This document shows, piece by piece, positions 791-36,973 of a DNA stretch of 64,000 nucleotides. This DNA is from Treponemataceae bacterium. GTDB lineage: Bacteria > Spirochaetota > Spirochaetia > Treponematales > Rectinemataceae. The stretch covers positions 64,001-128,000 of the forward strand of contig CAXXHO010000004.1 in assembly GCA_963667725.2 (NCBI GenBank), written 5' to 3'. Below the pieces are notes generated by a model that had not been told where the DNA came from, did no database searches, and was given only the letters and a program-made list of their open reading frames with translations. Made by a program: the position numbers and the translations under genes. How positions within the stretch are numbered: the stretch's first letter is position 1; each line of letters starts with the position of its first letter.

Positions 791-1242
791 AAGACGAGAT
801 GCTCGCGCTGGCGGCCGCGGTTCCCGACTCCGAGGGGAAGCGCGCCGTCTTGCGGGATTGCCTGCAGGCCTCGGTGCTGCGGTCCTTCCACGAGGCCGAG
901 GCCTTCCTGTCCGTGGCGATCGCAAGCGAGGGCGCGGCGGGCCTCGAGTTCGCCCTTCTGGACAAGAAAGACTACAAGCCCGAGCGCTGGCTCTTCGCGG
1001 CCAAGCGCCGACTCTGGTTCATGGGGCTTGATCCGCGCATAGCCTTCGCGCGCAAGCTCTCGGTCCACCAGGGCTGGGTCAAGGTGCCCGGCCTCCTGGC
1101 GGAGGCGGGGCTGCCCGAGGACGCCGCGGATCCGCTGGGGGTCAGGATTCAGATCGCTTTGGCGCCGCCCGAGCATTGTGGTACCTCAGTGGCCATCGTG
1201 GAACGCTTTGGGCTGCGGTTTGGGATTAAGAGGACAGGATGA
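784..1242 (+). pseudogene. abiEii: Degenerate, truncated AbiEii-like nucleotidyltransferase toxin
   Basis: 'LRDCLQASVLRSFHEAEAF' resembles the AbiEii N-terminus, but the GGT...RxSxDLDF motif is absent. Only 152 aa; the stop codon lies inside hairpin repeat 1. Confidence 0.65.
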
Positions 1243-1396
1243 CGGGACCGGACAGGATTTACTGGGAGAATGTTTTTGGGTTAGGAGAACGCGCGGCTCT
1301 TCTCGCAGCCTGTCTCGTTTACCTATTTCTTTTCTTCTCTTTCTTTCTTAACCATAAGCTTTTTCCTGTCAGTCCTGATGGTCCTGTTGTCCTGTC
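1233..1396 (+). repeat. Long hairpin repeat, copy 1
   Basis: GACAGGATGAC...GGGTTAGGA...TCTTAACC...GTCCTGTTGTCCTGTC. Confidence 0.95.
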
Positions 1397-2075
1397 GTAG
1401 TATTCACGCCGATAAAGCCTAGGTAGGTGTCGCGGTTGACGCACTCGAAACCGGCGCCGGGATACGCGGCGGTCCAGGAAGCGGGCGGCCGGAGCGTCCG
1501 TTTGGCGAGCTTGAACTCGAAGCCGGCGAGGTTGCCTTCCGACTCCTCGACATAGTCGAGTTCGGCTCCCGTATGCGTGCGCCAGAACCATGCGCCGCCG
1601 TGCCAGCCCCGATAGGCGTTGTGCTTTCTCCGCTCGCCGACGAGGAAGTTCTCCCAGAGAGCGCCCTTGTCCGGCCTTAGCTCCCAGTCCTTGAAATCAT
1701 CGATCAGCGCGTTCCTGATTCCGTTGTCGTAGAAATAAATCTTGTCCTTGCGGGTCACTTCTTTCCTGAGGTTCCTGCCGTAGCCGCCGAGGCGGAAGAC
1801 GACAAAGGCCTTTTCGAGCAGGTCGATATAGGAGATCACCGTGTCGGCGCTCATGGAAGTTTGCCGGCCCAGTTCTTGATAGGAGACTTCAGATCCCACC
1901 TGATAGGCCAGGAGGCGCAGGAGGTCCCGAAGCTTGCGCGGGTTGCGGATGCCGCCCAGCTCGAGGACAGCTTCTCGCCAAGTTCGGGAAAGGCGATCGG
2001 ATAGAGCGTATAGGTTCGGGCGATGGAGAGGCTTGAGCGATCGCTCGACGTTCGGGATCGGTCCTAGTAGATGTT
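1369..2075 (-). pseudogene. Deletion remnant of an AAA_14/DUF4143 ATPase (paralog of 6947..8137)
   Basis: 3' half nearly identical to 6996-7568; 5' half reduced to short fragments; start codon lost. Confidence 0.9.
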
Positions 2076-2120
2076 ATGGCGCGATTTCATCGACTATGAA
2101 AGATGAAATGGTGAGAATTG

Positions 2121-2284
2121 GACAGGATGACAGGAATGGGACAGGATTAACAGGAAAGAGTTTTTGGGTTGGGAAAGAGGACACAGTGCGCTTCTCGGAG
2201 TTTGGCGCGGTTACCTATCGCCGCGCTTCTCTTTCTTGAGCAAAGGCGCTTTCCTGTGAGTCGTGGGGGTCCTGTCGTCCTGTC
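2121..2284 (+). repeat. Long hairpin repeat, copy 2 (loop type B)
   Basis: Same arms as copy 1 with a different central loop. Confidence 0.95.
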
Positions 2285-2285
2285 T

Positions 2286-2312
2286 AAAAGTTAAAAAATG
2301 GGGTCTGACCCC
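2286..2312 (+). repeat. Short REP-like motif AAAAGTTAAAAAAT-GGGGTCTGACCCC
   Basis: 13-bp palindrome with an A-rich leader; recurs at 3836, 8329, 9777, 15654 (minus strand), 21296 and 30684. Confidence 0.9.
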
Positions 2313-2315
2313 CTC

Positions 2316-3656
2316 TTAACGGCGCGCCAGCTTATTATTGACCGTATCCTTGTCGAAGCGATCCGGTGCCCAGCGGATCCTGGGAGCCGGCGAGGCGAAC
2401 AGCGTGGCCGAGGCTTCAGCACGAAGTTCCTTATAACCCTCGATGCCGCCGCAGTCTTCGGGGGGAGTAGCCATGGCGCCGTCCAGGCAGACGCAGCAGG
2501 AGGTCCAGGCTTCCTCGTCTTGGAACTTTTCCCGCGCCTTCACTTTTATGGAATGCACCCAGTCGTCGCCAAAATCGTAGGTGTATTCGAGCGTATGGCC
2601 CACCTTGAGCCTCAGTTCGTCGAGGCTGACGATATCGTCGGCGATGATCACTCGCTCCTCGTCGTCCGAGAGTTCGCCGAATATCGCATGGTCATAGCGA
2701 AACTCATGGAGGTGATAGTCTTCCCAGCCGAAGGCGTCCTGCAGGCAGCGATGGAGGTCGGCGAGGGTCCGGTTGCCGGGAATCCGGAGGGTTCTGAAGA
2801 TGCGCGGCTTGGTTCCTCGCAGGGCGACTTCCAGCACATAGCTGTACTTCGAGGGCATGTACCCCTGGCGGGAGAGGGTGGCATGGTTGGAATCACGGCC
2901 TTTCGCCGGTATTTTCCTGGCGTGCCGCCGAGAGGACATAAGGGCTTCCAGGTCATCGAGGGTGGCTAGGTACGCTTTAAGGCTGGCGTTGCCTTGTTTC
3001 AGCACTTCGGCGAGGCGCGCTTTATCGGAGCGCAGCGGCTCATCGAGCTGGTGGCACAGGTTGAGGAGCTCGTTCATTTTAACGAGGTGCGCGGCAAGCT
3101 GTTTTTCTTCAGCTTCCGATGCATCCTCCAGGCTGTGGCGGACGATGCGCATCCAGAGAAGGAAGCGTTCGAAAATATCCATCAGGGCTTCGCGGAGGTA
3201 GTTTGCCTGCGGGATCTCGATGATGGAGAAATCGATGGTATCGAGGAAAGCCTCCGCCGCGCCGCGCGCGCAGGCTCTTAGCGCTTTGCGCCCGGATTCA
3301 GGAATTCCCGTGAAACAGAGGCCCACGAGCGTTCGATCGATCGCCTTTTCAATGAGGCTTTCCCGAAGGGCCGAGTCCGATGCAAGCTTTTTCTTGGTGA
3401 ATGTGCCGATTGCCGCATAGTGTCCGAGTTCGACGGCGAGGAAGTGTTCGATATCGGCCGCATCCACCGATAGATCGTATTCCTCGGCGAGGTCATGAAA
3501 GGGATCCAGGGAAGGCAATGCGCCCTTGGTGATGTCCTGAAACATTTCCTGCATGAGGGCAAGCTCTTTGTCGGAGAGCCCCTCCAGCATGGCGTTGCAG
3601 GCATTGGTTATGGCCGCAGCATCGAGTGGGTCTTTGCTCTTTTTCATGGTTCCCAT
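2316..3656 (-). CDS. pRiA4b ORF-3 family protein with long N-terminal extension (copy A)
   Basis: C-terminal 'TLADLHRCLQDAFGWEDYHLHEF...YTYDFGDDWVH...PPEDCGGIEGY'. Confidence 0.85.
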   Translation of the reverse strand: MGTMKKSKDPLDAAAITNACNAMLEGLSDKELALMQEMFQDITKGALPSLDPFHDLAEEYDLSVDAADIEHFLAVELGHYAAIGTFTKKKLASDSALRESLIEKAIDRTLVGLCFTGIPESGRKALRACARGAAEAFLDTIDFSIIEIPQANYLREALMDIFERFLLWMRIVRHSLEDASEAEEKQLAAHLVKMNELLNLCHQLDEPLRSDKARLAEVLKQGNASLKAYLATLDDLEALMSSRRHARKIPAKGRDSNHATLSRQGYMPSKYSYVLEVALRGTKPRIFRTLRIPGNRTLADLHRCLQDAFGWEDYHLHEFRYDHAIFGELSDDEERVIIADDIVSLDELRLKVGHTLEYTYDFGDDWVHSIKVKAREKFQDEEAWTSCCVCLDGAMATPPEDCGGIEGYKELRAEASATLFASPAPRIRWAPDRFDKDTVNNKLARR

Positions 3657-3712
3657 GGGTGTTTACTTTATGCTGGTTCTTTGGTTTTTGCCAGAAGGTT
3701 TCTTGGGATGTG

Positions 3713-3833
3713 GACAGGATGACGGGACTGGACAGGATTTACGGGAAGGAGTTATGGGTTAGGAGGGAGCGCGGCTCTTCTTTCTTAGCTAAAAGCTTTT
3801 TCCTGTGGGTCCTGGGAGTCATGGGATCCTGTC
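3713..3833 (+). repeat. Long hairpin repeat, copy 3 (short loop), followed by a GGGGTCAGACCCC motif ending at 3862
   Basis: Arms conserved, loop shortened. Confidence 0.9.
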
Positions 3834-3853
3834 CTAAAAGTTAAAAATTGGGG

Positions 3854-5221
3854 TCAGACCCCATTTAGCAACCTTTCGGATTGTTCAACGAGGTAGAGGG
3901 GGAGGGAGAGAAGCTTAAAGGGCTGAGAGGGTTTCCCCGCGATCGAGGTCGTGGACTCAAGGCAAGAAGGCACGTCGTCGTTGAAACGCAACCCCAAGGA
4001 AGCGTTTTTCTCCTGGAGGAACACCTGGAGCGACCTGAGACGGCCTGTCTTGCCCGCCTTGACTTCGACGGGAACAACCCGGCTTCCCTGCTGGATGAGA
4101 TAATCCACTTCGGCCGTGGATCCCTTGTTCCGCCGGTTCCAATAGAAAAGCGAAGGCTCGTGATAGAACCCATTCCGGTATAAAAGATGCTGACCGATGA
4201 ACTGCTCCGCCATGGCGCCGGAATTGACAAGCGTCATATCCCTATCGCGCGGAAAGTCGGCTGCGTTGAGACCCAGAAAAGACGCCAGAAGCCCGATATC
4301 CAGAAAAACAAGTTTGAAGGATGAAGGATGGACCTCGGCTCCAAGGGGAATCCCGTTCCCATCCGAATGGAACACCCTGAACACGAGGCGCGCCTTCTCC
4401 AACAGATCCAGGCTCTCTCGCACCTGGATCGATCGAGCGAGAGGATTGAGGCTCGAGTATTTCGCCGTCTTGCCGATCGTCGCGGGAATATTCTTGAAGA
4501 CTGCCTGCAGCATCGGAACATCGGCTTTTCGCTTATACTTGCTGAAATCGGCATAGTAGGTGAGCAATAGGTTGCTCTGCGCGCGCGACGCGGCTTTCAA
4601 GTCCAGATCCGATTCTATGAAAGCCTTTACCACCCCCGGCAAGCCCCCAACCAGGAAGTACTCCCTCATGCAGGCTCGCGCCTTGGCATGAAGCGCTTCG
4701 GGAAGGCTTTGCGGAATTCGGTATTCGGAAAGGTACTCGCGCAGCTGCTCCTGTCCGCGAGCCAGGAGGAATTCCTCAAAACTCATGGGCCCCAGATACA
4801 TGAATTCGATTCTTCCGACGGGAACGGAATATTCCGGCGCGCCGAGCGAGAAATCCAAGAGGGAGCCCGCGGCGATCACATGGAGTTCCGGCATTTTTTC
4901 GTAGAAATAGCGGAGCTTGGCGAGAACCGCGGGAACCGCTTGAATTTCATCAAGGAAAAGAAGGGTCTTCCCCGGGACTATCTTCTCGGAAGCATCGACT
5001 TCGATAAGCCGCACGATGGTCCGGACATCAGGCTCGTCGAAAAGGCTCGCTTTTTCGGGATCTTCATCGAAATTGATTTCCACGACCGAATCGAATGCCT
5101 GGCGCGCGAAGATCCGCACAAGCTCCGTTTTTCCCACTTGCCGGGCTCCGCGCAGTACGAGAGGTTTTCTGTCGGGCCTTACGCGCCACTGCGCGAGAAA
5201 ATCGAAGGCGAAGCGTATCAT
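3854..5221 (-). CDS. AAA_14 ATPase with DUF4143 C-terminal domain
   Basis: Walker A GARQVGKT, Walker B LFLDEIQ, 'VGGLP', C-terminal 'EVDYL...PVEVKAG'. Confidence 0.9.
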   Translation of the reverse strand: MIRFAFDFLAQWRVRPDRKPLVLRGARQVGKTELVRIFARQAFDSVVEINFDEDPEKASLFDEPDVRTIVRLIEVDASEKIVPGKTLLFLDEIQAVPAVLAKLRYFYEKMPELHVIAAGSLLDFSLGAPEYSVPVGRIEFMYLGPMSFEEFLLARGQEQLREYLSEYRIPQSLPEALHAKARACMREYFLVGGLPGVVKAFIESDLDLKAASRAQSNLLLTYYADFSKYKRKADVPMLQAVFKNIPATIGKTAKYSSLNPLARSIQVRESLDLLEKARLVFRVFHSDGNGIPLGAEVHPSSFKLVFLDIGLLASFLGLNAADFPRDRDMTLVNSGAMAEQFIGQHLLYRNGFYHEPSLFYWNRRNKGSTAEVDYLIQQGSRVVPVEVKAGKTGRLRSLQVFLQEKNASLGLRFNDDVPSCLESTTSIAGKPSQPFKLLSLPLYLVEQSERLLNGV

Positions 5222-5228
5222 GAAATTG

Positions 5229-5257
5229 ATTATGCACTATTTACCTAGTATTTTCAA
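5229..5257 (-). promoter_or_regulatory. Sigma70-type promoter for a probable leaderless mRNA
   Basis: On the minus strand: TTGAAA-17 nt-CATAAT-7 nt-ATG. Confidence 0.7.
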
Positions 5258-5285
5258 CATTTTTTGCTATTATTATAGGATATTT

Positions 5286-5453
5286 GACAGGATGACAGGA
5301 ATGGGACAGGATTAACAGGAAAGAGTTTTTGGGTTAGGAAGGAGAACGCGCGGCTCTTCTCGCAGCCTGTCTCGTTTACCTATTTCTTTTCTTCTCTTTC
5401 TTTCTTAACCAAAAGCTTTTTCCTGTCAGTCCTGATGGTCCTGTCGTCCTGTC
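5286..5453 (+). repeat. Long hairpin repeat, copy 4
   Basis: Loop nearly identical to copies 1 and 5. Confidence 0.95.
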
Positions 5454-6748
5454 GCCTTATTGAGCAGGGAGAGCGCGTAGAGGGGGATGTTCGTCAGCCA
5501 GCTTTGTTCGCGGTAGGGCGACAGCGAGGTTCGAAAAGCGCGCGGGGGCGAAAACTTGTCGTAATAGACGCGGAGGCTCTTGGCTTGCAGGTTTTCCGCC
5601 GCTTTTACTTCGAGGGGGTAAACAGAACCTTGGGCCTGAAGCAAAAAATCGACCTCAGCCCGGGAGGTGTCGCTCGACCAGTATGAGGCATCCATTTCTT
5701 CCATGAGACACAATTCCTGCGCGACATATTGCTCGGTCAGCGCGCCCTTGAATTCCTCGAAAAGGGCGTTCCCCCGCAATACCGCCTGCATCGGCAAGCC
5801 CGCATGCGCCGCCAGCAGCCCGATATCAAGCATGTAGAGCTTGAACGCGTTGAGCTCCTGATATGCCTTGAGCGGAAGCCCGGGCTTCGAGACTCTGAAG
5901 ATTTTGCGCGACAAGCCCGCATCGCAAAGCCACTCGATCGCGGATTCATATTCTCTCGCCCTGGCGCCCTCGCGGACGAGTCCGTACACGAATTTTTTCT
6001 GTTCCCGGGCCAATTGGGCCGGCAGGGAATTCCAGACCGCCCGGATCCGAGGGACCGTGTCTGGTTTCGCGTATTTCGAAAAATCCCGTTCATAGGCTTC
6101 AAGCAGCGCTTTCTGGAAGACGCGGACCTTGTCGAGATCCTTGGTTTCCACGAAGGTGACCACGCTCTCCGGCATGCCGCCGACGCAATAGTAATAGCGC
6201 AGGGATTCGGTCAGCTTTTCCCTGAACGCATCGATCATGGACCAGTCGCCTGATGCGACAAGGTCCGCCAGCTCAGGCTCGCCGATGGCTTTCAAGAATT
6301 CCAGGAAGGAGAGCGGATAGAGATTCAAGAAGTCGACTTTGCCGACGGGGAAGGAAGTGTCCGCATGCAGCGAGATCCCCAGGAGCGATCCTGCCGCGAT
6401 AAGGTGGTACTGGGGAGCATTCTCATAAAAATACTTGAGCGAGGTGAGGGCCTTTGGGTTCGCCTGGACTTCGTCGAATACGATGAGCGTCTTTTCAGGC
6501 TCGATGGGCACGCCCGTCTCCACGCGCAAGCCCATGAGGAGGCGCGCAGGGTCCACGTTGGAGGAGAAAAGCGTTGTCATACGCTCATTGGACTCGAAAT
6601 TTATATAGGCGATGTTTTGGTAGATGCTTTTGCCGAATTCTTTGAGCAGCCATGTTTTGCCGACTTGGCGGGCGCCGTTCAGGACGAGAGGTTTTCTGCG
6701 CGGATCACGTTGCCACGCCAGCAGGGCTGAGAGGGCTTTTCTTTCCAT
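5426..6748 (-). CDS. AAA_14 ATPase with DUF4143 domain
   Basis: GARQVGKT, IVFDEVQ, VGGMPE, EVDFL...PLEVKA; last residues encoded by repeat 4. Confidence 0.9.
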   Translation of the reverse strand: MERKALSALLAWQRDPRRKPLVLNGARQVGKTWLLKEFGKSIYQNIAYINFESNERMTTLFSSNVDPARLLMGLRVETGVPIEPEKTLIVFDEVQANPKALTSLKYFYENAPQYHLIAAGSLLGISLHADTSFPVGKVDFLNLYPLSFLEFLKAIGEPELADLVASGDWSMIDAFREKLTESLRYYYCVGGMPESVVTFVETKDLDKVRVFQKALLEAYERDFSKYAKPDTVPRIRAVWNSLPAQLAREQKKFVYGLVREGARAREYESAIEWLCDAGLSRKIFRVSKPGLPLKAYQELNAFKLYMLDIGLLAAHAGLPMQAVLRGNALFEEFKGALTEQYVAQELCLMEEMDASYWSSDTSRAEVDFLLQAQGSVYPLEVKAAENLQAKSLRVYYDKFSPPRAFRTSLSPYREQSWLTNIPLYALSLLNKATGRQDHQD

Positions 6749-6769
6749 ACTATAAGTGTATTGCGGGTC

Positions 6770-6797
6770 ATCACAAAAGTGTAGCCTCTTTTGTGAT
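6770..6797. promoter_or_regulatory. Inverted-repeat operator candidate upstream of the ATPase gene
   Basis: ATCACAAAAG-N8-CTTTTGTGAT. Confidence 0.55.
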
Positions 6798-6830
6798 TAG
6801 TTGAACAAAAGTCGTACAAGTTTTGTGTTT

Positions 6831-6995
6831 GACAGGATGACAGGAATGGGACAGGATTTACAGGTAGGAGTTTTTGGTTAGGAAGGAGAACGCGGCTCTT
6901 CTCGCAGCCTGTCTCGTTTATTTATTTCTTTTCTTCTCTTTCTTTCTTAACCAAAAGCTTTTTCCTGTGGGTCCTGACGGTCCTGTCGTCCTGTC
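6831..6995 (+). repeat. Long hairpin repeat, copy 5
   Basis: Conserved arms and type A loop. Confidence 0.95.
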
Positions 6996-8137
6996 TTAGT
7001 ATTCACGCCGATAAAGCCTAGGTAGGTGTCGCGGTTGACGCACTCGAAACCGGCGCCGGGATACGCGGCGGTCCAGGAAGCGGGCGGCTGGAGCGTCCGT
7101 TTGGCGAGCTTGAACTCGAAGCCGGCGAGGTTGCCTTCCGACTCCTCGACATAGTCGAGCTCGGCTCCCGTATGCGTGCGCCAGAACCATGCGCCGCCGT
7201 GCCAGCCCCGATAGGCGTTGTGCTTTCTCCGCTCGCCGACGAGGAAGTTCTCCCAGAGAGCGCCCTTGTCCGGCCTTAGCTCCCAGTCCTTGAAGTCGTC
7301 GATCAACGCGTTCCTGATCCCGTTGTCGTAGAAATAGACCTTATCCTTGCGGGTCACTTCTTTCCTGAGGTTCCTGCCGTAGCCGCCGAGCCGGAAGACG
7401 ACAAAAGCCTTTTCAAGCAGGTCGACATAGGAGATCACCGTGTCGGCGCTCATGGAAGTTTGTCTGCCTAATTCCTGATATGAGACTTCCGATCCCACTT
7501 GATAGGCCAGAAGGCGCAGGAGATCCCGAAGCTTCCGCGGGTTGCGGATGCCGCCCAGCTCGAGGACATCCTTGTACAGGTATGCGGAACTCAATTCCAG
7601 AAGGTGCGCGACTTTGTCGGCTTTCGCGCCCATGCTGAAAAGCGCGGGATACAGCCCGAGCACGAGGCATTCGGGCAGACTCCCCTCGAGCTCGAAGGGA
7701 GACAGCTTTTCGCCAAGCTCGGAAAAGGCGATCGGATAGAGCGTATAGGTCCAGGTTCGCCCCGTGAGTGCTTCGGTGGCGGTTCGGGCGATGGAGAGGC
7801 TCGAGGAGCCCGTCACCAGGAGCGAGCCGGGGAAGCCTTCGTCGTAGAGCAGCTTGAGCGCCCGCTCGACGTTCGGGATGTGCTGCGCCTCGTCGACGCA
7901 GACGAGATCGAAGCCGGCGATTTGCCCTTTGATCATGCGAAGATCGCTCGAAGCCCAGAGCTCCTGTACGCGCGGATCCTCGCCGTTGACCATGATGGTT
8001 TTGCCTTCGAAGCTCCGCATCGCAGCCCGGGCAAGGGTTGTCTTGCCGCATTGCCGAGGCCCATAAAGAAGCACTATGCGCCGGTCGGTCCGCAGGCGGT
8101 GCTGGAGTATCCCTAAGAGCGCTCTATCGATGTTCAT
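6947..8137 (-). CDS. AAA_14 ATPase with DUF4143 domain
   Basis: GPRQCGKT, CVDEAQ, TGSSS, GALWEN, ELDYV...FEFK. Confidence 0.9.
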   Translation of the reverse strand: MNIDRALLGILQHRLRTDRRIVLLYGPRQCGKTTLARAAMRSFEGKTIMVNGEDPRVQELWASSDLRMIKGQIAGFDLVCVDEAQHIPNVERALKLLYDEGFPGSLLVTGSSSLSIARTATEALTGRTWTYTLYPIAFSELGEKLSPFELEGSLPECLVLGLYPALFSMGAKADKVAHLLELSSAYLYKDVLELGGIRNPRKLRDLLRLLAYQVGSEVSYQELGRQTSMSADTVISYVDLLEKAFVVFRLGGYGRNLRKEVTRKDKVYFYDNGIRNALIDDFKDWELRPDKGALWENFLVGERRKHNAYRGWHGGAWFWRTHTGAELDYVEESEGNLAGFEFKLAKRTLQPPASWTAAYPGAGFECVNRDTYLGFIGVNTKTGRQDRQDPQEKAFG

Positions 8138-8144
8138 AATAGAT

Positions 8145-8181
8145 ATTATAACGCGATTTCATCGACTATGGAAGATGAAAT
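8145..8181 (-). promoter_or_regulatory. -10 box plus inverted-repeat operator candidate
   Basis: TATAAT 7 nt upstream of the ATG; ATTTCATC-N10-GATGAAAT at 8156-8181. Confidence 0.6.
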
Positions 8182-8192
8182 TGTGTGAATTG

Positions 8193-8326
8193 GACAGGAT
8201 TTACAGGTAGGAGTTTTGGGTTAGGAAGGAGAGCTCGGCTTTTCTCCTAACCCTTTTTTATATTCTCTTTTCTTCTCTTCTCTTTCTTAACTAAAAGCTT
8301 TTTCCTGCTAGTCCTGGGATCCTGTC
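8193..8326 (+). repeat. Long hairpin repeat, copy 6, followed by a GGGTCAGACCCC motif ending at 8354
   Basis: Shorter arms, same core. Confidence 0.9.
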
Positions 8327-8357: not shown

Positions 8358-9698
8358 TTAACGACGCTCCAGCTTTTTGTTGACCGCGTCTTTGTCGAAG
8401 CGCTCCGGGACCCAGCGAATCCTGGGAGTCTTGGGGACGAACAGCGTGGCCGATGCCTCCGCTCGGAGTTCCTTATAGCCCTCGATGCCGCCGCAGTCTT
8501 CGGGGGGAGCGGCCATGGCGCCGTCCATGCAGACGCAGCGGGAAGTCCAGGCTTCCTCGCCTTGGAGCTTGTCCCGCGCCTTTACTTTTATAGAATGCAC
8601 CCAGTCATCACCGAAATCGTAGGTGTATTCGAGCGTATAGCCTACCTTGAGCCCAAGCTCGTCGAGGCTGACGATGTCGTCGGCGATGATCACGCGTTCC
8701 TCCTCATCCGAGAGCTCGCCGAATATCGCATGGTCATAGTGAAACTCATGGAGGTGATAGTCTTCCCAGCCGAAGGCGTCCTGCAGGCAGCGATGGAGGT
8801 CGGCGAGGGTCCGGTTGCCGGGGATGCGGAGGGTTCTGAAGATGCGCGGCTTGGTTCCCCGCAGGGCGATTTCCAGCTCATAGTAATACTTCGAGGGTAT
8901 GTACCCCTGGCGGGAGAGGGTGGCATGGTTGGAATCACGGCCTTTCGCCGGTATTTTCCTGGCGTGCCGCCGAGAGGACATAAGGGCTTCCAGGCCATCG
9001 AGGGTGGCGAGGTACGCTTTAAGGCCGGCCTGGCCTTGTTTCAGCACTTCGGCGAGGCGCGCTTTGTCGGAGCGCAGTGTTTCGTCGAGCTGATAGCACA
9101 GGTTGAGGAGCTCGTTCATTTTGGCGAGGTGCGTGGCGAGCTGTTTTTCTTCAGCTTCAGACGCTTCGTCCAGGTTGTGGCGAACGATGCGCATCCAGAG
9201 AAGGAAGCGTTCAAAAATCTCCATAAGGGCTTCGCGGAGATAGTTTGCCTGCGGGTTCTCAATGATGGAGAGATCGATGCCATCGAGGATGGCCTCCGCC
9301 GCGCCGCGCGCGCAGAGCCTCAGCGCTTTGCGTCCGGATTCGGGAATGCCCGTTACGCAGAGGCCCACGAGCGTTCGATCGATCGCACTTTCCATGAGCC
9401 GTTCCCGAAAGGCCGGGTCGGAGGCGAGCTTTTTCTTGGTGAGTTTGCCGATTGCCGCATAGTGTCCGAGTTCGACGGCGAGGAAGTTTTCAATATCGGC
9501 CGCATCAACCGAAAGGTCGTATTCCTCGGCGAGGTCGTGAAAGGGGTCGCGGGAGGGCAATGCGCCCTGGGTGATGTCTTGAAGCATTTCCTGCATGAGG
9601 GCCAGCTCTTTATCGGAGAGTCCCTCCAGCATGGCATTGAAGGCATTGCCGATCGTCGCGGCATCGAGGGGGTCTCTGCTCTTTTTCGTGGTTCCCAT
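8358..9698 (-). CDS. pRiA4b ORF-3 family protein (copy B)
   Basis: Colinear 446-aa paralog of 2316..3656. Confidence 0.85.
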   Translation of the reverse strand: MGTTKKSRDPLDAATIGNAFNAMLEGLSDKELALMQEMLQDITQGALPSRDPFHDLAEEYDLSVDAADIENFLAVELGHYAAIGKLTKKKLASDPAFRERLMESAIDRTLVGLCVTGIPESGRKALRLCARGAAEAILDGIDLSIIENPQANYLREALMEIFERFLLWMRIVRHNLDEASEAEEKQLATHLAKMNELLNLCYQLDETLRSDKARLAEVLKQGQAGLKAYLATLDGLEALMSSRRHARKIPAKGRDSNHATLSRQGYIPSKYYYELEIALRGTKPRIFRTLRIPGNRTLADLHRCLQDAFGWEDYHLHEFHYDHAIFGELSDEEERVIIADDIVSLDELGLKVGYTLEYTYDFGDDWVHSIKVKARDKLQGEEAWTSRCVCMDGAMAAPPEDCGGIEGYKELRAEASATLFVPKTPRIRWVPERFDKDAVNKKLERR

Positions 9699-9739
9699 GG
9701 GTGTTTACTCTATGATGTTTCTTTGGTTTTTGCCAGAAG

Positions 9740-9804
9740 GTTTTCCTGGTAGTCCTGATGGTCCTGCTATCCTGTTAAAAAGTTGAAAATTGGGGTCTGA
9801 CCCC
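9740..9804 (+). repeat. Right-arm-only copy of the long repeat plus GGGGTCTGACCCC motif
   Basis: TTTCCTGGTAGTCCTGATGGTCCTGCTATCCTGT-AAAAAGTTGAAAATTGGGGTCTGACCCC. Confidence 0.8.
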
Positions 9805-9808: not shown

Positions 9809-11122
9809 CTAGAGCGCCCACCAGGGGATGGCGGTGACTGTGTCGCTTATGCGAAGGGGATACGGGGCACGGCAAACGATGTATCCCTGAGGCGCGACGG
9901 CCTTATGATCCTGCAGGAACGCCTCGAGATGGCGCGCATCCTTTTTTGTCGGGTTTTCCGTCCATTTCACCTCTATCGGGACAAGCGCTCCCGCACGCTC
10001 CACGATAAAATCAATCTCAGCTCCGCCCGCGGTGCGATAATAGCTGAGTTTCGCGTCTCCGCGATAGGCAAGCCTCTTATAGAGCTCTATGCCCACCCAT
10101 TGTTCAAAAAGAGGGCCCGGGTTCGCGAGCACCGTGTCCGGACCGAAGGAAAGCCCCGCCAGCGCATTCCGCACGCCGAGATCGATGAAAAAGAATCGGG
10201 GGCTGGAAAGCGCGGTCTTGCGCGGGCTTCCGGAAAAAGCGGGTACCGTGAATCCAAGAAACATGTCCTCGAGAAGCTGATAATGCGCCTTGATCGTGGG
10301 CGAGGAGACTCCCGATTCTTTGGCGATCCCTGAAAAGTTGACAATGCTCCCCGATTCGGCGGCCGCGAGCGACAAGAATCGCAGGAAAGGCCCCCACGCC
10401 CTTATCTGCGCTTCCCGATGAAGCTCCTCCTCGACATACGCGCCCGCATAGGCGCGAAGCACGTCGCTCCTATCGGAGCGCTCGACCGCAATTCCGGGAA
10501 GATCGCCAAAAGTCATCCTATCCTCGAGGCTCCTCGGCGGAAAGGGTATCTTCAGGGAAGGTTCATCCTGAAGACAGGGAAGCAGGCTTCGCCTTCCGGC
10601 GAGTCGGTCGATAGGATATCCCACGGGGATCGTTTGTTCGTACTCGGCGCTGGTGAGCGGATAGAGTCGATGCATGAAGCTTCTGCCGGGGAGCAAATTG
10701 GCGCCGATGCGCCTGAGCCGCCGCGCCGAGCTCCCGCAAAGTATGAAACGGCTGCGCCGCTCTTCCGGCAAAATTCGTTTTTCCTCATCGTAAAGAAATT
10801 GGACCGCATCGAAAAGCTCCGGTACGGTTTGGGCCTCGTCAAGGAAGACCCATCGCGGAGTACCCGCGCGAGGGTTCCCCGAATCGGGGAGCGCTCGGTA
10901 AAGATCGATGAACCTCCCGGGAGCGGCGGCGAACCGCATCCGCAGGGAGGGATCGGAAAAATCGAAGACGAGCGCATCGGAGGGAATACAGCTTCTAATG
11001 AGCGTCGATTTCCCCGTTTGACGAGCGCCGAACATGATATGGACATAGGGCGCCGCCAATTTTTTAGAAAACTCCCCGAAATAAAGTCGATCGAACAGTT
11101 CCATATCCGAATCATCGAACAT
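9809..11122 (-). CDS. AAA_14 ATPase with DUF4143 domain
   Basis: GARQTGKS, FLDEAQ, CGSSARRL, EIDFI...PIEVKW. Confidence 0.9.
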   Translation of the reverse strand: MFDDSDMELFDRLYFGEFSKKLAAPYVHIMFGARQTGKSTLIRSCIPSDALVFDFSDPSLRMRFAAAPGRFIDLYRALPDSGNPRAGTPRWVFLDEAQTVPELFDAVQFLYDEEKRILPEERRSRFILCGSSARRLRRIGANLLPGRSFMHRLYPLTSAEYEQTIPVGYPIDRLAGRRSLLPCLQDEPSLKIPFPPRSLEDRMTFGDLPGIAVERSDRSDVLRAYAGAYVEEELHREAQIRAWGPFLRFLSLAAAESGSIVNFSGIAKESGVSSPTIKAHYQLLEDMFLGFTVPAFSGSPRKTALSSPRFFFIDLGVRNALAGLSFGPDTVLANPGPLFEQWVGIELYKRLAYRGDAKLSYYRTAGGAEIDFIVERAGALVPIEVKWTENPTKKDARHLEAFLQDHKAVAPQGYIVCRAPYPLRISDTVTAIPWWAL

Positions 11123-11195: not shown

Positions 11196-11374
11196 GACAG
11201 GATTACAGGATGGGACAGGATTTACAGGAAGGAGTTTCGGGTTAGGAAAGAGGACGCTGCGCGCTTCTCGGAGCTTGGCGCGGTTACCGCGGTTACCTAT
11301 CGCTGGACTTCTCTTTCTTGACCAAAGGCGCTTTCCTGTAGGTCCTGAAGGTCCTGTCGTCCTGTCGTCCTGTC
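11196..11374 (+). repeat. Long hairpin repeat, copy 7 (loop type B)
   Basis: Conserved arms with an extra GTCCTGTC unit. Confidence 0.95.
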
Positions 11375-11460: not shown

Positions 11461-12438
11461 ATGATGAACAAAAAGGCTACCCGGCATTTTGGATTCCCGT
11501 CGATCATCCTGGCGCTCCTCGCGCTGGCGGCATGGGGCGCGCTGGCCGCCTGCAGCCTGGACACCTACGAACCCAAGGAAAACGAAGTGAAGGTGACCAT
11601 CTCGGGCCTGGGCGACAAGGCCGTCCTTGCCCGCGAAAGCCTTGGCGCCGAGAAGGCGCGGGGCTTCGCGGCGTCCTGGGTGAAGGTGGCGGTGATCGAC
11701 GGCGACGGCGCCCAAACCGGATCGGGCAGCCTCGCCCTGGAGAACGGCGTCTGGGAAGGCTACGTCCAGCTGTCCGGCCCGGGCGCGATGACCTTCATCG
11801 TCTCCGCCGGAACGGCGGCAGACCAGGTCTCGTGGATGGGCAACGGCGCCCTGACCGTCGGCGGGAAAGGCCAGGAGATCACCGTGACGGTGACGGTGCC
11901 CGCCCTCGGCGCGAAGGGCCCCGCCGGCGGCTCGATCTTCTACGACAAGGGCAGCTACTCGAACGGCTGGCGATACCTGGAAGCCTCGCCCACCGACACC
12001 GCGGCGACGGCCTCCGTTTCCGACAATGGGTACCGGCTCTGGGCGGCCCAGACAACCTATGTCGTGGGCAACACCTACGCGGGGATCGGCTACGGCAAGG
12101 AGAACACGGACTGGATCCAGGCCGCGGGCAACGCCACGATGTACCCGGCCGCCTGGTATTGCGCCGAATTGGAATGCGGCGGCGCGGCCGACTGGTTCCT
12201 GCCCTCGTGGGACGAGCTTGCCGAGATGCGGAAGGTCATCGGCCACGCCGGCTTCCATGTCGAGTATCAAGGCGCCTTTTGGTCTTCGACCGAGCGGACG
12301 GCCCTGGACGGCGGCACGGACGCGGCCTACTACGTCTACACAGACGCCTACAAGACGACGAAGGGTCCGGCGCTGAAGACCAACGCGGACGTGTACGTGA
12401 AGGCCGCGCGGCGGTTTTTATGTAAGAGGACAGGATGA
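11461..12438 (+). CDS. Lipoprotein with DUF1566/C-type-lectin-like C-terminal domain
   Basis: Signal peptide with lipobox LAAC; 'GPAGGSIFYDKG...WRYLEA', 'DWFLPSWDEL', 'FWSSTE', 'VKAARRF'. Confidence 0.7.
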   Translation: MMNKKATRHFGFPSIILALLALAAWGALAACSLDTYEPKENEVKVTISGLGDKAVLARESLGAEKARGFAASWVKVAVIDGDGAQTGSGSLALENGVWEGYVQLSGPGAMTFIVSAGTAADQVSWMGNGALTVGGKGQEITVTVTVPALGAKGPAGGSIFYDKGSYSNGWRYLEASPTDTAATASVSDNGYRLWAAQTTYVVGNTYAGIGYGKENTDWIQAAGNATMYPAAWYCAELECGGAADWFLPSWDELAEMRKVIGHAGFHVEYQGAFWSSTERTALDGGTDAAYYVYTDAYKTTKGPALKTNADVYVKAARRFLCKRTG

Positions 12439-12593
12439 CGGGAATGGGACAGGATTTACTGAGAGAATGTTTTTGGGTTAGGAAAGACGACGTTGTGCGC
12501 TTCTCGGGGACTGGCACGGTTGCCTATCGCCGCGCTTCTCTTTCTTGACCAAAGGTTCTTTCCTGTAGGTCCTGATGGTCCTGTCGTCCTGTC
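12429..12593 (+). repeat. Long hairpin repeat, copy 8 (loop type B)
   Basis: Conserved arms; supplies the stop codon of the lipoprotein gene. Confidence 0.95.
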
Positions 12594-12645: not shown

Positions 12646-12984
12646 TCATGCCTTTGAGAGTTCGTTTTCAAGCGCTTTCTGCATGAGCTGGTTCAGGGAG
12701 ATCCCCTGCTCCACCGCCGTTCGCTTTGCTCTTTTATGCAGTTCGGGCGATATTCTCACGTTGAAGCTTCCCTTATAGGATTTTTCAGTTTCCTTTTCCT
12801 CTCGCTTGCAGGTTTCAAGATAGTCTTCAACGGATTCCTTAAAGGCGGATTTGAGGGCGTCGACGCTTTTCGCCTCAAAGGTCACCAAGTCGTCTATCCC
12901 TTCCAGCTTGCCATAGAAGATTTCGTCTTCAGCGCAGTAATGTACCGAGCCCATATAGTCTTTATAGGTAAGAACGTCTTTCAT
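12646..12984 (-). CDS. hicB: HicB family antitoxin (orphan)
   Basis: 'YKDYMGSV...FYGKLEGIDDLVTF...VEDYL...YKGSFNVRISPELH...GISLN'. Confidence 0.9.
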   Translation of the reverse strand: MKDVLTYKDYMGSVHYCAEDEIFYGKLEGIDDLVTFEAKSVDALKSAFKESVEDYLETCKREEKETEKSYKGSFNVRISPELHKRAKRTAVEQGISLNQLMQKALENELSKA

Positions 12985-12998: not shown

Positions 12999-13157
12999 GA
13001 CAGGACTACGGGATGGGACAGGATTTACAAGAAGGAGCTTTTAGGTTAGGAGGGCGCGCGGCGCTTATCGGAGCCTATTTAGGTTATGCATACTTGCTCT
13101 TCTCTTTCTTAACCAAAGGTTCTTTCCTGTAGGTCCTGATGGTCCTGTCGTCCTGTC
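12999..13157 (+). repeat. Long hairpin repeat, copy 9
   Basis: Conserved arms, divergent loop. Confidence 0.9.
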
Positions 13158-13537
13158 GTGGTTTTGGGCGTGTAGTCGCGGTACTTGCGCTTGAAGGTGA
13201 TGTCCTGGGGGCCGAAGTTGATCACGAGGCCGGTGGGGGTGTCCGTGGCCTTGAGGTAGTTCACGAGCTGGACTTCGTGGGCTTTGGCGATGGCCTCGAC
13301 GGCTTTGAGCTCGAGGATCACGCGGCCTTTGACGATGACGTCGGCGAAGAAGGAGCCGATGACGGTTCCGTCGTAGAAGACGTCGATGGGCGCCTCGATG
13401 ATGAAGGGCAAGGCGGCTTTGTGCAGTTCCATGGCCATGGCTTGCTTGTAGACGGATTCCAGGAAGCCGGCGCCGAGGGTGTTGTACACCTTGAACGCGC
13501 ACCCGATGATTTTTTCCGTGAGCGGGTCGTCGATCAT
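13109..13537 (-). CDS. GxxExxY protein (PD-(D/E)XK nuclease superfamily)
   Basis: 'LGAGFLESVY', 'ADVIV...ILELKA', 'QLVNYLKAT...GLVINFG'. Confidence 0.92.
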   Translation of the reverse strand: MIDDPLTEKIIGCAFKVYNTLGAGFLESVYKQAMAMELHKAALPFIIEAPIDVFYDGTVIGSFFADVIVKGRVILELKAVEAIAKAHEVQLVNYLKATDTPTGLVINFGPQDITFKRKYRDYTPKTTTGRQDHQDLQERTFG

Positions 13538-13581: not shown

Positions 13582-13744
13582 GACAGGACGACAGGAATGG
13601 GACAGGATTCACAGGAAGCGTTTTTGGGTTAAGAGAGCGCGCGGCTCTTCTCTTAACCCTTTTTCATTTTCTCCGCTCTTCTCTTCTCTTTCTTTCTTAA
13701 TCAAAAGCTTTTTCCTGTCAGTCTTGGGGTCCTGTTATCCTGTC
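13582..13744 (+). repeat. Long hairpin repeat, copy 10
   Basis: Conserved arms; supplies the stop codon of the CocE gene. Confidence 0.95.
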
Positions 13745-15618: not shown

Positions 15619-15653
15619 GGTGCCTCCGTTATTTCGGCCGCTCGTTAAAAAAC

Positions 15654-15680
15654 GGGGTCTGACCCCGATTTTTAACTTTT
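15654..15680 (-). repeat. Short REP-like motif, stand-alone and inverted
   Basis: Reverse complement reads AAAAGTTAAAAATC-GGGGTCAGACCCC and contains the TAA stop of the upstream ATPase gene. Confidence 0.85.
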
Positions 15681-21295: not shown

Positions 21296-21328
21296 GTTAA
21301 CTATTGGGGTCAGACCCCAATAGTTAAC
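21296..21328. repeat. Perfect 33-bp palindrome built on GGGGTCAGACCCC
   Basis: GTTAACTATTGGGGTC-A-GACCCCAATAGTTAAC; contains the response regulator stop codon. Confidence 0.9.
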
Positions 21329-25117: not shown

Positions 25118-25301
25118 GACAGGACGACAGGAGGGGACAGGATTTACAGGAAATGTGTTTAGGTTAAGAGAACACGCGGCTCTTCTCTTAACCCTTTTTT
25201 TATTTCCATTTCTTCTCTTCTCTTTCTTTCTTAACCAAAAGCTCTTTCCTGTCAGTCCTGAGGAGTCCTGGGATCCTGTCGTGGAGTCCTGTCGTCCTGT
25301 C
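25118..25301 (+). repeat. Long hairpin repeat, copy 11
   Basis: Lies between divergent genes; extra arm units. Confidence 0.95.
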
Positions 25302-26588: not shown

Positions 26589-26767
26589 GACAGGACGATA
26601 CGACAGGACGACAGGACTAGACAGGATCTACAGGAAATGTGTTTGGGTTAAGAGAACGCGCGGCTCTTCTCCTAACCTTTTTTTTAATCTTTTCTTCTCT
26701 TCTCTTCTCTTCTCTTTCTTAACCAAAAGCTCCTTCCTGTCAGTCCTGTGTTTCCTGTCGTCCTGTC
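26589..26767 (+). repeat. Long hairpin repeat, copy 12
   Basis: Fills almost the whole gap between convergent genes. Confidence 0.95.
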
Positions 26768-29416: not shown

Positions 29417-30565
29417 TTAGGCTCCAGCATCCAATAGCTGGGCAACGAGGGCATCGAGCGGGCAAAAAACAACGCGGAGATTGCCAATTTCCCGTTCGTA
29501 GGACCGATGCAGATCCGCCGCGACCACGTAATTGCGCCCCTGCGGATGAAGGGCTCTGAAGGCTCGAATGCCGTTAGGCTCGAATGCGTCGGCGGACCAT
29601 TTTACCTCTATCGCGCTGGGCGCTGTTCCGCGCGGCGCCCAAACAAAGTCGACTTCATGCCCTTCCTTGTCGCGCCAGGTGAACGGCGCGCTGTCCTGAA
29701 GTCCCGCGTTCATTTCGTTCAAGACGAGGTGTTCCCAGAAAAAGCCTTTTTCCTTTGCCGGAATCTCATGCAGCCCCTGCGCCCAGGCAATGAACCCTGT
29801 ATCGAAGCCATAGACGCGCGGTGTGGCCGTGATTTCCCTGGCGTTCCCCCCATGATAGGGACGCACGACGTGTACGAGATGCGTTGCTTCTAATATCCCG
29901 AGATAATTTATAATAGTGGTGCGGCTTACGCCGCATGAGGCCGCGAACGCGGTGGCGTTGAATTGCCCTCCGCTCTGCGCCAGAAGCAGTTCAGCGAATT
30001 TCAGGAACGAGGCGCGGCGCTCCAAGCGAAACAATTCGAGAATATCGCGCGCCCAGAATGCTTCTATCCATTCCGAATACTCTCTGTCATCGCGCGCTTC
30101 GGCAAGGAAGAATCCAGGCAAGCCGCCGTTCAGGAACCGTCTTGAACGATCGCCGTATCCCGGGAACGCGGTATCGTTTTCGCAGAGCGGGGTGAGCCTG
30201 AGTTCCAGCTTTCTGCCCGCCAAGGTATCTTTGAACTTTGCTGATGCGCCTAAGGTCGACGACCCTGTCGCTACAATGCGGATTTCCGGGAAATGGTCGG
30301 CGGCAATTTTAAGGAGGAGCGCGGGGTCGGCGAGCCGATGGATTTCGTCGAGCGCGAGGATTCCGCTCCCGATAGCTTTGAGGAATGCTTCAGGATCCTC
30401 AATCTCCCTTCGCACTGAAGGCAACTCGCAATCAAAGTAGCGGATTCCCTCCAAATTCTTGCAGAGAACGGTCTTTCCCACCCTACGGACGCCTGACAGC
30501 CAGACGATCGGACGCTTTTCCCATAGCGATCGGATTCTTGCTTCCCACCATTGCCTTTGTATCAT
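29417..30565 (-). CDS. AAA_14 ATPase with DUF4143 domain
   Basis: GVRRVGKT, LDEIH, TGSS, EVDFV...IEVKW. Confidence 0.9.
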   Translation of the reverse strand: MIQRQWWEARIRSLWEKRPIVWLSGVRRVGKTVLCKNLEGIRYFDCELPSVRREIEDPEAFLKAIGSGILALDEIHRLADPALLLKIAADHFPEIRIVATGSSTLGASAKFKDTLAGRKLELRLTPLCENDTAFPGYGDRSRRFLNGGLPGFFLAEARDDREYSEWIEAFWARDILELFRLERRASFLKFAELLLAQSGGQFNATAFAASCGVSRTTIINYLGILEATHLVHVVRPYHGGNAREITATPRVYGFDTGFIAWAQGLHEIPAKEKGFFWEHLVLNEMNAGLQDSAPFTWRDKEGHEVDFVWAPRGTAPSAIEVKWSADAFEPNGIRAFRALHPQGRNYVVAADLHRSYEREIGNLRVVFCPLDALVAQLLDAGA

Positions 30566-30620: not shown

Positions 30621-30656
30621 GACGAAACGAAAATAGACTTACTTTTTTAGCGGTCG

Positions 30657-30709
30657 ATCCTGACAGTCCTGCCATCCTGTCCAAAAGTCAAAATTGAGGT
30701 CTGCCCCCA
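30657..30709 (+). repeat. Degenerate right arm of the long repeat plus degenerate short motif
   Basis: ATCCTGACAGTCCTGCCATCCTGTCC-AAAAGTCAAAATTGAGGTCTGCCCCC. Confidence 0.7.
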
Positions 30710-32026: not shown

Positions 32027-32039
32027 GCGCTCTCCCGCG

Positions 32040-32100
32040 AAAGAGCGCGGTTCGGCGGCTCGCATCCTCGCGATGCGCGGCGCTGGACCGCGCTTTTTTT
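32040..32100 (+). terminator. Probable intrinsic terminator
   Basis: AGCGCGGTTCGGCG...CGCTGGACCGCGCT hairpin followed by a T-run. Confidence 0.6.
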
Positions 32101-32187
32101 ATAATTGCGGCGCTGGGCGACTCATAGTATAGTGCCTTCACTGAGCCGGTCCGGCTGGTTTTCCTACTGCACTCCAAGGAGCCCGCA

Positions 32188-32595: not shown

Positions 32596-32705
32596 CAAAC
32601 CAGGCGCCCCGGCTTTACCGCCGCGGCGCCTCATTTTATACTGACTCAGCATCGAAGCCGCGGCGCCGGGAATGACGTTGTGCGCTCGATACCGGGAGGC
32701 TTTCC

Positions 32706-35778: not shown

Positions 35779-35834
35779 AGGTTCATTCTAATGCACGCCG
35801 TTTCGCGCGTCGATGCGGCATTTCGCGATTTCGC

Positions 35835-36801
35835 TCAGCCCGCCGCGTCCTCGAACACGCGCGCGAAGTTGCGCCAGGCGATTTTCTCGACCTCGCCCTC
35901 GGAATAGCCCGAGGCGAAGAGGGCGTCGATGATGGCCTGGGCGCGCGAGGCGTCCTCGAGGCCGGACACGAGGGGGTATTCCTCGCGCGTGTAGAGGTAT
36001 TCGCAGAAGTGGAGGCCGAGGCCGACGTGGTCGACTCCCGCGGCGCCGATCATGTGGTTCAGGTGCTCCATGTAGCGTTCGAGCGTGTGGTGGGCGCGGT
36101 CGGCGGCGGGCGCGAGCGCCGCGGGGCTGGTCATGCAGCCGACAAGGCCGCCCGAGTCGGCGATATCGCGCAACGCTTCGTCGGAGAGGTTGCGGCCGGT
36201 GTCGTACACCGCCTTGCACGAGGGTGTGCGAGAGCATGACGGGCCTGGTCGAGGCGGCGAGGATGTCGCGCCGCGTGGCCGCGCCGGCGTGGGCCATGTC
36301 CACCAGGATGCCGAGCTTGTTCATGGCGGCCAGGGCCTCGCGGCCTTTTTCGGTGAGGCCGCCGCCGGAGCCGAGCGCCCCGCCGCCGAAGATGTTGTCG
36401 TCGTTGTGCGTGAGCGAGGCGACGCGCAGGCCGGCCTCGCCATAGAGCCGCCACAGCCAATCAATATCGCCCAACGTTGCGGAGAGTCCCTCGTAGCCGA
36501 CGACGGCCGCGAAGGCGCCGGATTCCATGGCGGCGCGGAGATCGGCGGCGCGGAGCACGGTCACGGCGCCAGGCCACGCGGCGGCGAGCTCGCGCCGCGC
36601 CGCCGCGATGAAGCGCTCGAGGTGCTCGGGACCGGCCGCCTCGCCGGCCATGCGGCAGTCTATAAGGGCCGCTCCCGCGACGCCTCCGGCGCGCATGCGG
36701 CGCAGGTGGCGCTCCTCGAGCTCGGGCGCGGCGTTATGCGATTCATGCCGGCGCGTCAAGTCCATGAACACGTCGGCGTGCAAGTCAAATATCGGCACCA
36801 T
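35835..36801 (-). CDS. Membrane dipeptidase (M19), one frameshift near 36223
   Basis: 'DLHAD', 'LTHN', 'VDMAH', 'SHT', 'RNLSDE'. An extra C in a C-run breaks the frame; probably a sequencing error. Confidence 0.8.
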
Positions 36802-36810
36802 GGCTAATAG

Positions 36811-36973
36811 GACAGGATGACAGGATAAGAGGACAGGATTTACAGGAAAAGGACTTTGGTTAGGATAGCGTTTTCTTCGCATCCTGTTATCGCGTCTTTC
36901 TTCTTCTCTCTTTCTTCTCTTCTCTCAACCAAAAACTCTTTCCTGCCAGTCCTGCTCATCCCGTTATCCTGTC
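36811..36973 (+). repeat. Long hairpin repeat, copy 13
   Basis: More divergent copy inside a peptidase operon. Confidence 0.9.

Follow-up and report, generated by a model that had tools for sequence, protein, structure and literature searches.

Hairpin-shaped CAGGA repeats between interchangeable defence-type genes of a Treponemataceae genome, and their candidate GxxExxY nuclease

The hairpin array and its genes

The DNA analysed here (the window) is a stretch of 64,000 nucleotides of contig CAXXHO010000004.1, from the Treponemataceae assembly GCA_963667725.2; position numbers without a prefix refer to this stretch, the contig is denoted C4 and the genome G000. The window carries 13 full copies of an inverted repeat of 120-180 nt, hereafter called the hairpin, whose arms are made of tandem CAGGA words, and a gene for a nuclease of the GxxExxY family, which lies among them. 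Copies 1-10 form an array, in which hairpins alternate with single genes, and copies 11-13 are found singly, between ordinary genes. In total, 41 hairpin copies were catalogued in the genome.

Each arm contains four CAGGA words, with a period of 8-9 nt, and after them a purine/T tract that is less well conserved. The second word is followed by an asymmetric internal loop of 4-6 nt, whose position is conserved; no fixed extrahelical base was seen in the arms, which were inspected without an attC model. The length of the centre varies between 21 and 71 nt. Polarity is identical in all the full copies, and arm profiles, for which the 13 window copies partly served as training set, score higher on the plus than on the minus strand in 13/13. 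An earlier note, made from the sequence of the window alone, had reported 13 full copies in a single orientation: the count stands, with two right-arm remnants to be added. The inner stem, which it had drawn for copy 4, was also recovered, since both strings are present (at 5316 and 5402) and pair with three G·T pairs and one bulged G. The pyrimidine-rich plus-strand loop, attributed by the same note to every copy, is found in 8 of the 13 (pyrimidine fraction of at least 0.67), the fraction being 0.43-0.55 in copies 2, 3, 7, 8 and 9. Several copies of the same polarity on another contig of the assembly, C5, have purine-rich centres, and the pyrimidine loop was rejected as an orientation marker because of such non-pyrimidine centres.

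The left neighbour of the array is an AbiEi-type antitoxin gene (107-790, plus strand; PADLOC AbiEi, E 5.8e-24; Atlas AbiEi clusters, 0.95), which has orthologues in contigs C6 and C5 and holds this place in all three versions of the locus described below. It is followed by a 152-aa open reading frame (ORF) with no family match (784-1242, plus), which runs into hairpin 1 and, given its position, is likely the AbiE partner. Between hairpin 1 (1233-1396; this and all following hairpins and remnants are on the plus strand) and hairpin 2 (2121-2284) lies a 3' fragment of an ATPase cassette, Z (DUF4143; 1369-1899, minus; 96% identical to 6947-8137). A pRiA4b ORF-3-like cassette (2316-3656, minus; 87% identical to 8358-9698) separates hairpin 2 from hairpin 3 (3713-3833), which has a short centre. 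Three ATPase cassettes follow: X (AAA_14+DUF4143; 3854-5221, minus), which in C5 has a 93% identical copy, located on the opposite flank of Y; Y (5426-6748, minus), whose stop lies inside hairpin 4 (5286-5453) and which is present in C6 (98%) and C5 (88%) with different neighbours; and Z (6947-8137, minus), with its stop codon inside hairpin 5 (6831-6995). Beyond hairpin 6 (8193-8326), which has lost its outer units, are found the second pRiA4b ORF-3-like gene (8358-9698, minus), a right-arm remnant, in which left arm and centre are deleted (9732-9775), and ATPase cassette W (9809-11122, minus). Hairpin 7 (11196-11374), with one extra outer unit, precedes the Lcl_C-domain protein cassette (11461-12438), which is inverted relative to its neighbours (plus strand) and matches its domain weakly, under the curated cut-off. 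Then come hairpin 8 (12429-12593), a HicB antitoxin cassette (12646-12984, minus), hairpin 9 (12999-13157), the GxxExxY (TIGR04256/PDDEXK_3) gene (13109-13537, minus) and hairpin 10 (13582-13744), the right border of the array, after which a peptidase S15/Opp cluster common to C6 begins. The hicA gene of C6 has been deleted here, up to a few bases from hairpin 9. The array cassettes include five AAA_14+DUF4143 ATPases, of which one is partial and the four complete ones match PADLOC PDC-S01, besides the two pRiA4b ORF-3-like genes and the Lcl-like, HicB and GxxExxY genes.

The dispersed copies are hairpin 11 (25118-25301), for which contig C2 has an empty site, hairpin 12 (26589-26767) and hairpin 13 (36811-36973), identical in C6. 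A further right-arm remnant (about 30647-30681) lies beside a PDC-S01 ATPase gene (29417-30481, minus), at a position occupied in C6 by a full hairpin without a gene. Hairpins are located just 3' of stop codons or overlap them (distances between -49 and +52 nt). As the earlier note had stated, their flanking genes are in tandem, divergent (copies 7 and 11) or convergent (copies 8 and 12), and polarity does not depend on the direction of these genes.

Two other features of the array were recorded. Upstream of each ATPase cassette is a conserved AT-rich motif particular to that cassette, containing direct or inverted repeats and promoter-like hexamers (5225-5285, 6750-6830 and 8140-8190; C6:7290-7400), possibly an autoregulatory operator. 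The extra outer word units (11352-11374, 25274-25301 and 26589-26610; C6:12541 and C6:14006) vary between strains, often adjoin genes in the minority orientation, and are possibly scars of joining at the outer end of the hairpin.

Reshuffled versions of the locus and the GxxExxY nuclease

Further versions of the region are found in the assembly, in C6 (92% over 16 kb), C2 and C5:670-790 kb, and probably derive from co-binned strains or species. Three array versions, those of the window, C6 and C5:743-755 kb, were compared: the AbiE-type left neighbours are common to them, the cassettes are different. In the window, the AbiE-type pair is followed by the Z fragment, pRiA4, X, Y, Z, pRiA4, W, Lcl, HicB and GxxExxY; in C6, by a gene with an FGE-sulfatase domain, two unassigned genes, an AAA_14 gene, Y and HicBA; in C5, by ATPase cassette V, three other ATPase-type genes, Y, X and GxxExxY, with X and Y in the opposite order to that of C4. 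The homology of shared cassettes stops at the outer end of a hairpin or within about 25 nt of it, junctions varying by 0 to about 25 nt.

Contigs from four public runs, belonging to four studies, show the same tendency: among the joints listed, 12/15 fall at hairpins (inside or within 40 nt). In two runs (X5 and X10) the AbiE side is joined via a hairpin straight to Y, the intervening cassettes being absent; several of the hairpins are mosaic, combining different copies of the window. Sequence divergence was compared between hairpins and their flanks. For the four array pairs, the hairpin arm adjoining a shared gene differs by 9-16%, versus 1.3-4.3% for the adjoining 300 nt of the gene; for dispersed copies, divergence does not exceed that of the flanks in 2/3 and is slightly above it in the third (15% vs 9-13%). 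Copies paired by a common left neighbour are most alike as far as about column 65, and those paired by a common right neighbour beyond it (3+4 pairs). At the single empty site, that of hairpin 11 in C2, the surrounding DNA is otherwise alignable, and no target-site duplication is evident. An additional rearrangement was noted at locus L095 (G044:C167), where three identical 1857-bp units, each with a 521-aa ORF and hairpins, are arranged in tandem; this is either a recent hairpin-bounded amplification or an assembly artefact.

The GxxExxY protein of the window is 142 aa long and retains D66 and the E76-L-K78 motif; the PD-(D/E)XK catalytic residues are invariant in 16/16 sequences. Its structural model (pLDDT 85) finds weak matches in Cas4, lambda exonuclease and the Hjc junction resolvase. 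The closest relatives in named records include metagenome-assembled genomes (MAGs) of Rectinemataceae and Spirochaetota, which makes a spirochaete of this kind the probable host; no homologue was found in viral contigs.

The distribution of the gene was compared with that of the word. In a sample of 401 genomes of the phylum, the word pattern was found in two, both from the same family as the window genome. Among 69 genomes of this family, 25 have a GxxExxY homologue and 19 the arm pattern. Homologues with at least 53% identity occur in 9/69 genomes, all nine with the word pattern, and in none of the 50 pattern-free genomes; 15 of these 50 have only distant homologues, many of them flanked by other words. 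Placement also differs, the gene of the window clade lying between two full hairpins and distant homologues in the loop of one arm pair; distant homologues in the loop of CAGGA arms were found at L030, L081, L083, L155 and L194. At the locus studied here, the TIGR04256 gene is bracketed by arms of a tandem 7-9-nt word, and gene-less copies of the same word exist (the 41 copies of the catalogue), with filled sites and the empty one of C2. The link between nuclease and hairpins is drawn from this word-specific co-occurrence with one GxxExxY clade, which makes the protein a likely candidate for the cognate enzyme, presumed to act on them.

Two occurrences outside the family were recorded. A contig titled Candidatus Shapirobacteria (L078) carries a near-identical nuclease (85-93%) and a hairpin array, the result of either transfer or mis-binning. 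A Clostridiales MAG (G476; loci L256-L275) has 93 arm matches genome-wide, among which are tandem units of 200-410 nt whose CAGGAT arms are short, and a GxxExxY gene in the loop at L081. In the passages found of PMC3424549, the family (TIGR04256, PF13366) is given as of unknown function and no link to repeats is mentioned. A literature search, which left subscription journals mostly uncovered, found neither a paper that connects GxxExxY/PDDEXK_3 with repeats nor a description of arrays of this kind; the supplements of surveys of repetitive extragenic palindromes (REPs) could list the word.

Folding strand and polarity

In order to evaluate the claim of the earlier note that the hairpins fold best on the non-coding strand, both strands of each copy were folded. 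The plus strand folds better in 10/13 copies, either with RNA parameters (copies 1-10; mean -16.9 kcal/mol) or with DNA parameters (copies 1-9 and 12; mean -4.2). Compared with 25 shuffles of each strand, the plus strand is better by at least one z unit in 6/13, about equal in five and worse in two; both strands fold below their shuffles. Among the arm mismatches, the ratio of G·T-type to A·C-type is 72:5 in the ten array copies of the window and 7:8 in the three dispersed ones. In the other two array versions it is 41:8 and 49:7, and dispersed copies there give 12:13 and 16:16. When distinct site types are counted in parsed outer arms (4/41 copies of G000 did not parse), these ratios become 7:2, 8:2 and 6:2, with sites largely shared, and 10:4 when pooled by hand (p = 0.18). 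A strand-folding asymmetry in homogenised repeats can look overwhelming (72:5) even when very few sites underlie it.

No depletion is seen for mismatches that disrupt pairing on both strands (42 in the array of the window, 30 and 53 in the other two). A functional plus hairpin accounts for this no better than avoidance of a stable minus fold, or founder effects. The covariation expected by the earlier note proved nil (term 0.16; 2/25 pairs); conservation of the stem follows from that of the CAGGA word.

Relatives do not share the window's folding preference. In G069 the plus strand wins in 12/12 copies and is the coding strand for most cassettes, 8 of the 12 being flanked by plus genes only. 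The coding strand also folds better in 8/10 copies of G014, G044 and G045. The non-coding strand wins in 11/22 metagenome loci (of the 79 loci, 42 without a partner arm at the score threshold and seven with long spacers were left out) and in 9/28 copies of the Clostridiales genome G476. As a rule for the family, best folding on the non-coding strand is not supported by these counts; what remains of the claim is the local preference, in 10 of the 13 window copies.

The folding strand was also compared with the direction of replication. The dnaA gene is located at C5:863 kb, and genes to its left are mostly on the minus strand, so that the plus strand of the window would be the leading-strand template. 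The better fold is on this presumed template in G000 and in G069 (14/14 copies with RNA parameters, minus leading by 47/51 core genes), and weakly so in G005:C49 and G021. Contrary cases are G014:C87 and G045:C207, with the direction deduced from one island gene each, and single copies in G084:C60 and G005:C39; G476, with short arms and noisy alignments beyond them, gives a null result (24/39; G·T 143:128). Depletion affects the G·T mismatches of the presumed lagging template (5 vs 72 in G000, 5 vs 37 in G069), and mismatches breaking both strands are common (42 and 87). A neutral C-to-T (deamination) bias of replication or transcription was rejected for G000, as it would place G·T on the minus strand, whereas the reverse is observed.

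Polarity is opposite, relative to replication, in G000 and G069, and is therefore not set by replication. The polarity of the third word unit relative to flanking genes is as in the window in 23/32 callable copies; with respect to both the neighbours and the nuclease gene, it is better conserved than the folding strand. If the copies were independent, the 13/13 co-orientation would have a probability of about 2e-4; being homologous and recombining, they are not independent. Taken by itself, the folding bias has about an even chance of having arisen secondarily, from a few mismatches that homogenisation spread among the copies; somewhat less probable is selection against stable folding of the lagging-strand template. 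Most likely, it does not represent a functional fold of the non-coding strand.

Explanations and comparison with known systems

The explanation that we favour, with a confidence slightly better than even, is that the repeats are hairpin-shaped borders of single defence-type cassettes and REPIN-like recombination hotspots, likely targeted by the GxxExxY nuclease. The enzyme, with its Cas4/RecB/Hjc-like fold, would recognise the row of words, probably when it is extruded as a cruciform or hairpin, and cut near the hairpin base. The cut would be repaired by recombination with another hairpin copy, leaving hairpins homogenised, mosaic or converted, and the repair would delete, duplicate, invert or reorder the genes between copies. 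Gene-less hairpins would insert at new intergenic sites, as non-autonomous partners of the nuclease. Their common orientation would be due to descent, that is, to local spread with a fixed polarity relative to the nuclease gene; inversion of a cassette via the two flanking outer arms would leave hairpin polarity unchanged.

Several observations weigh against this explanation. We infer the action of the nuclease on the hairpins from sequence comparisons, and its structural matches are weak (best E 7.5e-5, TM 0.4-0.5). A GxxExxY match is missing in 9/19 pattern genomes, including the array-bearing G005, G014 and G042, which are 94-97% complete, and the gene lies within the fetched DNA in 7/79 metagenome loci. 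The close homologues L024 and L027 have few words upstream, and genomes that are kin to each other are not independent in the co-occurrence counts. C4, C6 and C2 are presumed strain variants of the C5 island, in an assembly with 6.26% contamination. Many of the public-run joints are mosaic hairpins with unchanged gene order, on short contigs with 90% likeness, and the crossover mapping draws on the 3+4 pairs mentioned above. Finally, ATPase cassette V is found without hairpins at another site in C6 and C2; cargo therefore moves also by other means.

A stronger form of this explanation, which we hold only tentatively, would be an integrase-free cassette system, in which GxxExxY reads the tandem CAGGA words of extruded hairpins and thereby causes cassettes to be captured, excised, inverted and reordered, the mismatches making the lagging template fold poorly. 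Such a system would be convergent with the logic of sedentary integrons, with unrelated chemistry.

Less probable still, and on the whole unlikely, is that the hairpins are selfish elements or relics handled by the host only, through SbcCD-type cleavage on the lagging template and RecA recombination between 160-nt direct repeats, GxxExxY being a passenger or their historical source. An sbcD gene is present (C5:661446-662213), just outside the hairpin-bearing island, arrays persist in the genomes without a GxxExxY match, and the depletion of lagging-template G·T in G000 and G069, with both-strand mismatches common, is as this explanation would have it. However, according to the parts of PMC3315005 available, an 85-bp palindrome is not cut during replication and the reaction needs longer-than-natural palindromes, and the arms described here are about 50 nt long and imperfect. 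Cleavage by the host alone would also leave the match of word to nuclease clade and the insertion at the empty site unexplained, and pure homologous exchange would keep the junctions, which vary by 0-25 nt at the outer end.

The earlier note had related the hairpins to attC sites and HUH-transposase substrates. In such a model they would be single-stranded DNA hairpins of the non-coding strand, recognised in the manner of attC by the IntI of the genome, or in that of REPs by an HUH enzyme. This we consider improbable. A co-oriented hairpin array at gene 3' ends would suit it, as would the cassette-like split of neighbour agreement at about column 65 and the presence in the genome of both an IntI and a gene similar to those of REP-associated tyrosine transposases (RAYTs). 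The better-folding strand in G000, non-coding and on the leading-strand template left of dnaA, also recalls large sedentary integrons, where the attC bottom strand is placed on that template in the portion consulted of PMC5371416. The sequence, however, does not follow the attC pattern as described in excerpts from PMC5027507, with an R box RYYYAAC before GTTRRRY and a conserved AAC crossover triplet: in the hairpins GTTAGG precedes CTTAAC on both strands, the reverse of the attC order, and AAC is not conserved, C5 and relatives having GGTAAAG or GGTAGGG in its place. The IntI of the genome, at C5:551 kb, has its own 94-copy repeat (C5:400-556 kb), about 190 kb from the C5 array, and no tyrosine recombinase was found on C4 or C6. 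The hairpins were therefore rejected as attC sites, and the lack of covariation and of a conserved folding strand weighs further against strand-specific recognition. The RAYT-like gene (249 aa, C4:25153-25899; below the NF047646 cut-off) fared no better: used as query, it was found in 3/69 family genomes and in only 2/19 hairpin genomes, and it is flanked by, and co-occurs with, another palindrome (3/3), for which reasons it was rejected as the partner of the hairpins.

An RNA element (a terminator, an RNase III processing stem or an antisense RNA insulating or silencing cassettes) is the least probable explanation: the stems are long and compatible with G·U pairs, their position near or across stops would suit it and a contig from an RNA library spans hairpin 8, but no hairpin matches Rfam 15 at the gathering score, covariation is nil, breakpoints are at the DNA level, and an intrinsic terminator was ruled out, since the full stems have no U-tract, terminator-like sites are at chance level (20 found, 19.2 expected) and polarity is the same for convergent and divergent genes. 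From the proposal of the earlier note, that the element acts as a strand-specific hairpin or antisense RNA and not as a terminator, the exclusion of a terminator is retained, together with a DNA-level element of recombination and insertion that separates cassettes in an integron-like manner; the functional fold on the non-coding strand is not.

Other repeats of the region were recorded. The palindrome flanking the RAYT-like gene, with core GGGGTC[AT]GACCCC and GTTAA arms, constitutes a second family, found in 5/69 family genomes. Its copies or half copies lie at 2290-2312 (a half copy abutting hairpin 2), 3840-3862, 9782-9804, 15644-15676 and about 21296-21328; half copies abut several CAGGA hairpins, and those at 2312-2300 and 3863-3849 are terminator-like on the minus strand. 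At C4:22.8-29.7 kb and C5:693-705 kb this palindrome separates AbiE, PIN/Phd, MazE/PIN and ATPase genes, forming a second repeat-punctuated array in the same island. The large integron (C5:400-556 kb, C1 and C7) includes at least 94 attC-like repeats and is present in several contig versions; its IntI, 472 aa in length, carries a long N-terminal extension. In the window, seven copies of a tandem repeat of about 111 nt (40685-41026 and 42650-43173) flank a DDE transposase fragment (41973-42608), and a 160-nt direct repeat, 90% identical (46213-46372 and 53601-53760), is found among short unannotated ORFs with PIN, ParD and Tdi1 matches, possibly another cassette region.

If correct, the favoured explanation would assign a function to a nuclease family that is widespread but orphan, and would add to integrons a second way for bacteria to keep a bank of defence genes that can be reshuffled. 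The locus makes the idea testable, with an enzyme of 142 aa, a substrate of 160 nt and three natural cassette orders in one assembly, and more in public data; GxxExxY homologues associated with other words offer a matched negative control.

Several known systems share features with the one described. In ORF-bearing intervening sequences of 23S rRNA genes a small gene is enclosed by inverted arms, as in the in-loop form of the relatives. Unlike them, the hairpins are not in rRNA, gene-less copies dominate and the rearrangement is at the DNA level. Unlike the account of GxxExxY/PDDEXK_3 in the passages of PMC3424549, the window gene, a clear member of the family, sits among repeats. Sedentary chromosomal integrons, as portrayed in the sections available of PMC5371416 and PMC5027507, resemble the array in having hairpins of one orientation behind single genes, cassettes in variable order, a cargo of defence and toxin-antitoxin genes and, in this genome, a better-folding strand that is non-coding, rich in G·T and on the leading-strand template. 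The array differs from them in that its hairpins have no R box in attC order, conserved AAC, adjacent integrase or attI, and in its inverted cassettes, promoter-like sites upstream of several of them, imprecise junctions and a folding strand not conserved in relatives.

The closest likeness is to REPs and to the hairpins formed by two of them (REPINs), with their RAYT (HUH Y1) enzymes, as presented in parts of PMC3337134 and PMC3733652. Both are short, non-coding, intergenic inverted repeats with conserved arms and a variable centre, formed from two inverted repeats around a spacer of variable length; both have empty and filled sites, and a small DNA-cutting enzyme, whose gene is flanked by its own repeats and whose clade matches the repeat. 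The REPIN unit, in the same parts of PMC3733652, is a short palindrome with an unpaired GTAG or CGTC tag, in contrast with the arms described here, which are tandem direct CAGGA words of 8-9 nt with their terminal bases paired in the stem. The partner, moreover, is a PD-(D/E)XK nuclease and not an HUH enzyme, and the copies are clustered in one island, where they border interchangeable genes. The system is thus a variant of REPIN-like repeat-enzyme systems, with a different class of enzyme and an integron-like behaviour of its cassettes.

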